Shown here: positions 8,982 through 9,437 of the stretch, piece by piece | How the letters are laid out: every line of letters starts with the position of its first letter | Position numbering within the stretch: position 1 is the first letter of the stretch | Translations under genes and position numbers: made by a program | Source: a phage | DNA: 64,000 nt | Sequence record: PZ452610.1 | Strand: one strand, 5' to 3' | The notes under the pieces: model-generated | Databases searched by the model: none | Seen by the model: only the letters and a program-made list of their open reading frames with translations | Told to the model about the DNA's origin: nothing

Positions 8982-9437
8982 TTATTTTAGATCTTCGGCC
9001 CAATCTAGTTTTAAGGGTTCTTTGTATTCACGGTCGAGAATAACCGGAATAGCTACATCACCACTGAATGATAGTTGGCCAACGTTATATGATAACGTTA
9101 TATGTGGAGTGTAGTCGTCGAAATCATGAGTAGCACCTAAAGCTCGTGCATACTGATGACGACATCTAAGATATTCAGAATCAAGAACTAAAACCAGTAC
9201 AGCGCCGTCGTCAGTTTTCCATACCTCAAAGTGTCCTGATTCGGCAACAGAATAACTACCACTAGATGTAGTATATGGTATGTTTACACGTGAATAACAA
9301 ATTGTTGAATGAAGCTTTTCACGTGGTACTGGATTAGGAATTCTTAATTTGCGCTGGAGGTCTTCCAGCGCATCAAGTGTTAATTCCGAAAATTTAGCTG
9401 CGACGTAGAGGCCTTGTGAAAAGTCCTCAAATTTCAT
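8982..9437 (-). CDS. 57B: 57B / Acb1-like 2H phosphoesterase (anti-CBASS candidate)
   Basis: 151 aa in T4 57B position; two H-x-T motifs (HST at ~43, HIT at ~112) typical of 2H phosphoesterases. Confidence 0.7.

Follow-up and report, generated by a model that had tools for sequence, protein, structure and literature searches.

A Mosigvirus gene in the T4 57B position very probably encodes the anti-CBASS phosphodiesterase Acb1

Does the small gene that occupies the T4 57B position in a Mosigvirus genome encode an enzyme that destroys CBASS signals, or is it an RNA-processing enzyme, as some of its database labels would have it? The question arises in a 64,000-nucleotide stretch of phage DNA (record PZ452610.1; hereafter the window), whose first 25 kb match Escherichia coli O157 typing phage 3 (NC_041863.1/KP869101.1; Mosigvirus, Straboviridae) at 100% identity. 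In both the open reading frame list and a scripted translation, the gene occupies 8982-9437 on the minus strand and encodes 151 residues from an ATG to a TAA stop. It corresponds to positions 74305-74760 of NC_041863.1, whose product YP_009592813.1 is 100% identical. A sequence-only reading of this DNA had given exactly these coordinates for a 151-residue frame, leaving the strand unstated, and had placed it in the T4 57B position with an HST motif near residue 43 and an HIT motif near residue 112. The placement holds, as the frame follows gene 1 and 57A and precedes ipI, an order kept in T4, RB69 and NC_041863.1, and the two motifs lie precisely at residues 43-45 and 112-114.

A scripted search of the protein for H-x-[T/S] found these two motifs only. 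The first, H43-S44-T45, is encoded by CAT TCA ACA at 9303-9311 on the minus strand and is equivalent to H44/T46 of the T4 protein, and the second, H112-I113-T114, is encoded by CAT ATA ACG at 9096-9104 on the same strand and is equivalent to T4 H113/T115. When the residues of the protein were shuffled 20,000 times, 14% of the shuffles also gave at least two H-x-[TS] motifs, so the pair taken by itself is weak evidence. It was rejected as a statistical argument, and the case for Acb1 is built instead on homology to the Pfam Acb1 family, to T4 Acb1 and to PDB entry 7T26.

In Pfam-A the protein matches PF23474, 'Anti-CBASS protein Acb1', with an E-value of 1.3e-58 and a score of 197.3 bits, where the curated cut-off is 27, and residues 8-149 span profile positions 1-144 of 144. 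The closest sequence in the PDB is 7T26/7T27, 'Acb1', with an E-value of 1.1e-58 over residues 9-148. A scan against NCBIfam returned no matching family model. The one other Pfam-A match is PF13563 (2_5_RNA_ligase2), which at 15.9 bits (E 0.013) stays below its cut-off of 27 and is confined to residues 70-131. In PHROGs the protein falls in phrog_755, which carries the label 'RNA ligase'.

The weak PF13563 match and the name 'RNA ligase', used by both RefSeq and PHROG 755, would fit a 2H enzyme of RNA repair or processing, either a LigT-like 2'-5' RNA ligase or an RNA 2',3'-cyclic phosphodiesterase, with RNA ends as the real substrate. The chemistry of the 2H superfamily is common to both types of enzyme, and Acb1 too passes via a cyclic-phosphate intermediate. 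However, the PF13563 score stays below its gathering threshold over part of the protein while the Acb1 profile is matched at full length, and the T4 protein with which it shares 85% of its residues is experimentally a cGAMP-degrading activity whose deletion sensitises the phage to CBASS. Membership of the LigT or 'RNA ligase' family was rejected on the PF13563 threshold, which leaves a relationship at superfamily level only, and we consider RNA ends a scarcely credible substrate. The 'RNA ligase' label is an outdated superfamily-level name, inherited from before 2022.

The identification as Acb1, which the sequence-only reading had proposed with T4 57B as the founding member, withstands a direct comparison. 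T4 57B was indeed identified as Acb1, the source of a cGAMP-degrading activity, by activity-guided fractionation (Hobbs et al. 2022, PMC9117128). Deletion of acb1 from T4 abolished that activity and sensitised the phage to CBASS, with a loss of plating efficiency of more than 300-fold on CBASS hosts (PMC9117128). Aligned by BLASTP with T4 Acb1 (gp57B, NP_049750.1, NC_000866), the window protein is identical at 129 of 151 positions (85%; 92% positives) without gaps and with an E-value of 2e-102. The proposal was to be given up if no significant alignment to Acb1 emerged or if a catalytic histidine was lost; H43 and H112 align with H44 and H113 of the T4 protein. Judged on its sequence, the window ORF is very probably the gene of a working Acb1 orthologue; Acb1 (T4 gp57B) is a small 2H phosphodiesterase that needs no metal.

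Structures of FBB1 Acb1 and point mutants of the T4 protein have been used to name the residues important for Acb1 function. These comprise the catalytic tetrad H44, T46, H113 and T115, of which an H44A/H113A version served as the catalytically dead T4 Acb1 control, the base-stacking residues Y12, W74, F107 and W147, and the adenine-N6 contact E141 (Hobbs et al. 2022, PMC9117128). As the T4 alignment is ungapped, these map onto the window protein at an offset of one, and all nine are conserved, namely H43, T45, H112, T114, Y11, W73, F106, W146 and E140. Six of them (H43, T45, H112, T114, Y11 and E140) are invariant columns in a nine-sequence alignment that extends down to 29% identity. This alignment comprises the window protein, T4 Acb1, FBB1 Acb1 and six divergent homologues (49-29% identity) from Straboviridae relatives, these being an Acinetobacter phage, a Krischvirus, an Aeromonas phage, two Vibrio phages and a Klebsiella Slopekvirus. 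The C-terminal lid, described for FBB1 Acb1 as residues 145-152 closing over the substrate (PMC9117128), is assigned by alignment to residues 144-151 of the window protein (LDWAEDLK; 8985-9008, minus strand). This segment includes W146 (T4 W147), and seven of its eight residues are the same as in T4.

None of the 22 substitutions relative to T4 Acb1 affects a residue named as functional. The two closest to the active site are L42 (I43 in T4), beside the catalytic histidine, and F70 (L71 in T4), near W73, and with 22 of 151 positions differing, these two included, small shifts in substrate range are possible. In an alternative reading, the enzyme belongs to the Acb1 family but has departed from T4 Acb1 in substrate range or role; it might be weaker on some signals, tuned to avoid the decoy-nucleotide guards of Panoptes, or active mainly against type III CRISPR systems signalling through cA3. 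Selection by Panoptes against active acb1 could provide a pressure favouring altered specificity (PMC13577387, PMC12657230). However, every residue known for substrate contact or catalysis is unchanged, the differences in the pairwise alignment are conservative or lie in loops, and nothing in the sequence suggests altered specificity. In addition, each of the ten Acb1 proteins that Hobbs et al. assayed, the T4 enzyme plus nine homologues, cleaved both 3'3'-cGAMP and cAAA (PMC9117128). Drift of this kind is very unlikely in our estimation. There is a similarly slim chance that the Mosigvirus allele has a measurably shifted substrate profile, for example with lower activity on the Panoptes decoys 2'3'-c-di-AMP or cA3; such an allele would keep CBASS evasion without tripping the Panoptes guard.

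An Acb1 orthologue with the substrate range of the T4 enzyme is the reading that we develop here. T4 Acb1 cleaves 3' of adenosine in a metal-independent reaction, with 3'3'-cGAMP, cUA, cAAA and cAAG as substrates and without cleavage of cGG, 3'2'-cGAMP or cA4, and its linear product fails to switch on Cap4, Cap5 or CapV-type effectors (PMC9117128). For the window orthologue we infer how it folds and catalyses, which substrates it takes, when it is expressed and that it counters CBASS. A single-sequence AlphaFold2 model of the protein was unusable (mean pLDDT 37), so the fold is claimed on 63% identity to 7T26, and by this homology the protein is predicted to form a compact fold of the 2H phosphoesterase type that bears a C-terminal lid. 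In the mechanism that we propose, the orthologue would be made by the phage during infection and would capture CBASS signals that are 3'-5'-linked cyclic di- or trinucleotides and contain at least one adenosine (for example 3'3'-cGAMP, cUA, cAAA and cAAG). The ligand would sit in a U-shaped pocket with its bases stacked on Y11, W73, F106 and W146, the adenine N6 would be read by E140, and the lid (residues 144-151) would shut over the ligand. Strain on the adenosine would then lead its 2'-OH to attack the adjacent phosphodiester. The H43/T45/H112/T114 tetrad would provide acid-base catalysis without metal, cutting 3' of the adenosine by way of an intermediate with a 2',3'-cyclic phosphate and leaving a linear product with a 3'-phosphate. 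By homology to the T4 and FBB1 enzymes, we propose that this linear product cannot activate CBASS effectors and that abortive infection would thereby be prevented.

Like its sequence, homology and residue conservation, the synteny of the orthologue and its overlap with 57A are direct observations. Five further genes frame the locus, all on the minus strand. Genes 2 (11147-11968) and 3 (10460-11050) are assigned by position relative to T4 and RB69, and gene 1, encoding a dNMP kinase (9672-10406), by PF21448 (E 3e-96). The tail-fibre assembly chaperone gene 57A (9437-9667; PF17594 GP57, E 5.6e-22) lies directly upstream of acb1, and ipI, encoding internal protein I (8617-8904; PF11634 IPI_T4, E 1.3e-50), lies downstream. 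The product of the gene 3 homologue at 10460-11050 is labelled 'tail tube protein gp19' in RefSeq NC_041863.1, as opposed to the tail completion and sheath stabiliser gp3 of RB69 and T4.

The junction between 57A and acb1 is a TAATG at 9435-9439 on the minus strand, in which the TAA stop of 57A and the ATG start of acb1 share base 9437; the sequence reads ...GAAGAATAATGAAA... A terminator scan between 57A and acb1 found none, and a promoter scan found no sigma-70-like promoter directly upstream of acb1. The base-sharing TAATG, together with the lack of a terminator between the genes, makes co-transcription of acb1 with 57A and translational coupling of the two likely. A candidate promoter for the pair is TATAAATA, an exact match to the T4 late-promoter consensus at 10022-10029 on the minus strand. 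It lies within gene 1 at a distance of 355 nt upstream of the start of 57A, and no other exact match occurs on the minus strand between 9437 and 12000. Since the counts from the promoter and terminator scans were no higher than in shuffles, the bearing of the TAATG overlap and of the late-promoter consensus on expression is reported as inference. Late or delayed expression of acb1 from 10022-10029 would agree with the onset of Acb1 activity at about 15 min in T4 infection (PMC9117128). Across the window, TATAAATA occurs in 18 copies against 8.0 ± 2.9 expected, and no shuffle reached 18. Most of the copies are on the plus strand between 33 and 55 kb (33034-54957), presumably ahead of late structural genes.

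Internal protein I inhibits the restriction enzyme GmrS/GmrD, which attacks glucosyl-hmC DNA. An IPI of this T4 type is present in the Mosigvirus window (8617-8904, minus strand), with 88% identity to T4 IPI and 100% identity to the ipI product of RB69. Mosigvirus is reported to carry arabinosyl-hmC, not glucosyl-hmC (PMC8594841). The adjacency of acb1 and ipI was described as a small anti-defence cluster in T4 (Hobbs et al., PMC9117128). Just downstream of ipI, an 87-residue ORF (8288-8551, minus strand) begins with MKTYKEFIAE, an N-terminus that it has in common with IPI and with the 108-residue 'internal head protein' of RB69. We take this segment to be the capsid-targeting leader of T4 internal proteins. 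The 87-residue product has no Pfam match and falls only in PHROG 13302, of unknown function. RB69 differs from the window in having an extra gene, that of the 108-residue internal head protein, between 57B and ipI. The genes of the ipI region look like a cassette of variable content that encodes injected internal proteins, possibly anti-defence proteins. Further along, tRNA-Arg(TCT) and tRNA-Met(CAT) lie side by side at 6633-6789 on the minus strand and account for all RNA-family matches across the window; the pair is the same in RB69, whereas the equivalent T4 locus has eight tRNAs.

The gene is widespread. At 90% identity or above, megablast recovers it from 155 phage records, 80 of which reach 99% or above, and all 155 are Mosigvirus-like phages of Escherichia or Shigella. 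By tblastn, homologues occur in approximately 1,470 phage records with hosts that include Escherichia, Klebsiella, Shigella, Acinetobacter, Vibrio and Aeromonas. The intact frame together with homologues in so many records points to purifying selection. Naming is uneven across these records. One public record already names a sequence-identical gene 'cyclic phosphodiesterase', and for a Tequatrovirus orthologue with 85% identity the annotation reads 'anti-CBASS protein Acb1'; the RefSeq label of the identical protein YP_009592813.1 is 'RNA ligase', and many GenBank records give 'hypothetical protein'. The evidence supports relabelling YP_009592813.1 and PHROG 755 as anti-CBASS phosphodiesterase Acb1. 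The orthologue is an ordinary, intact representative of an established family, its genome is published, and the gene is already known. A literature search on Acb1 and RB69 found no biochemical or genetic test of the Mosigvirus orthologue.

The consequences for the phage can be framed by two defence systems. An intact acb1 beside ipI predicts resistance to CBASS that uses 3'-5'-linked adenosine-containing cyclic nucleotides, and an intact acb1 also predicts sensitivity to Panoptes-type guards that detect cyclic nucleotide depletion. Panoptes guards sense the depletion of decoy cyclic nucleotides and restrict phages with active acb1, and escapers, both natural and obtained in the laboratory, carry acb1 mutations or inactivate the gene (PMC13577387, PMC12657230). 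The BASEL phage Bas43 is a natural acb1 nonsense mutant. With one type I Panoptes system, deletion of acb1 from T4 was without effect (PMC12657218). Both predictions would be of use in choosing O157-targeting phages for typing or therapy, and neither is conceptually new. The significance is small beyond the corrected annotation, which is the only practical output.

Set beside the named Acb1 proteins, the window protein differs least from those of its own relatives. In other Mosigvirus genomes, among them those of O157 typing phages 3, 6 and 13 and of Shigella phage JK45, the protein is 100% identical, and identity to RB69 gp57B (NP_861847.1) is 99.3%, the one difference being F70, where RB69 has Leu. 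With Acb1 of Erwinia phage FBB1, for which crystal structures are available as 7T26 (apo) and 7T27 (with a 3'3'-cGAMP analogue), identity is 63% (E 1.1e-58) and the alignment has one indel, of one residue. The two proteins share the HxT/HxT tetrad, the tyrosine, the glutamate and the C-terminal tryptophan, and FBB1 Acb1 has Phe and Tyr in place of the W73 and F106 of the window protein and their T4 counterparts, so that an aromatic residue is kept at both positions. PDB entries 9Q2G/9Q2Y, also named 'Anti-CBASS protein Acb1' (165 residues), have two HxT/S motifs in the 2H arrangement, with an E-value of 0.007 to 9Q2G. These entries and the wider LigT/PF13563 2H superfamily, which has the same motif arrangement, show marginal though alignable sequence similarity and stand outside the working-level family of the window protein. 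Compared with T4 Acb1, the window protein is one residue shorter at its N-terminus (151 against 152 residues), and the phages belong to different genera, Mosigvirus here and Tequatrovirus for T4. Both genes fill the slot between 57A and ipI; the overlap of 57A with 57B is 4 nt in T4 and, in the window, the 1 nt of the TAATG.
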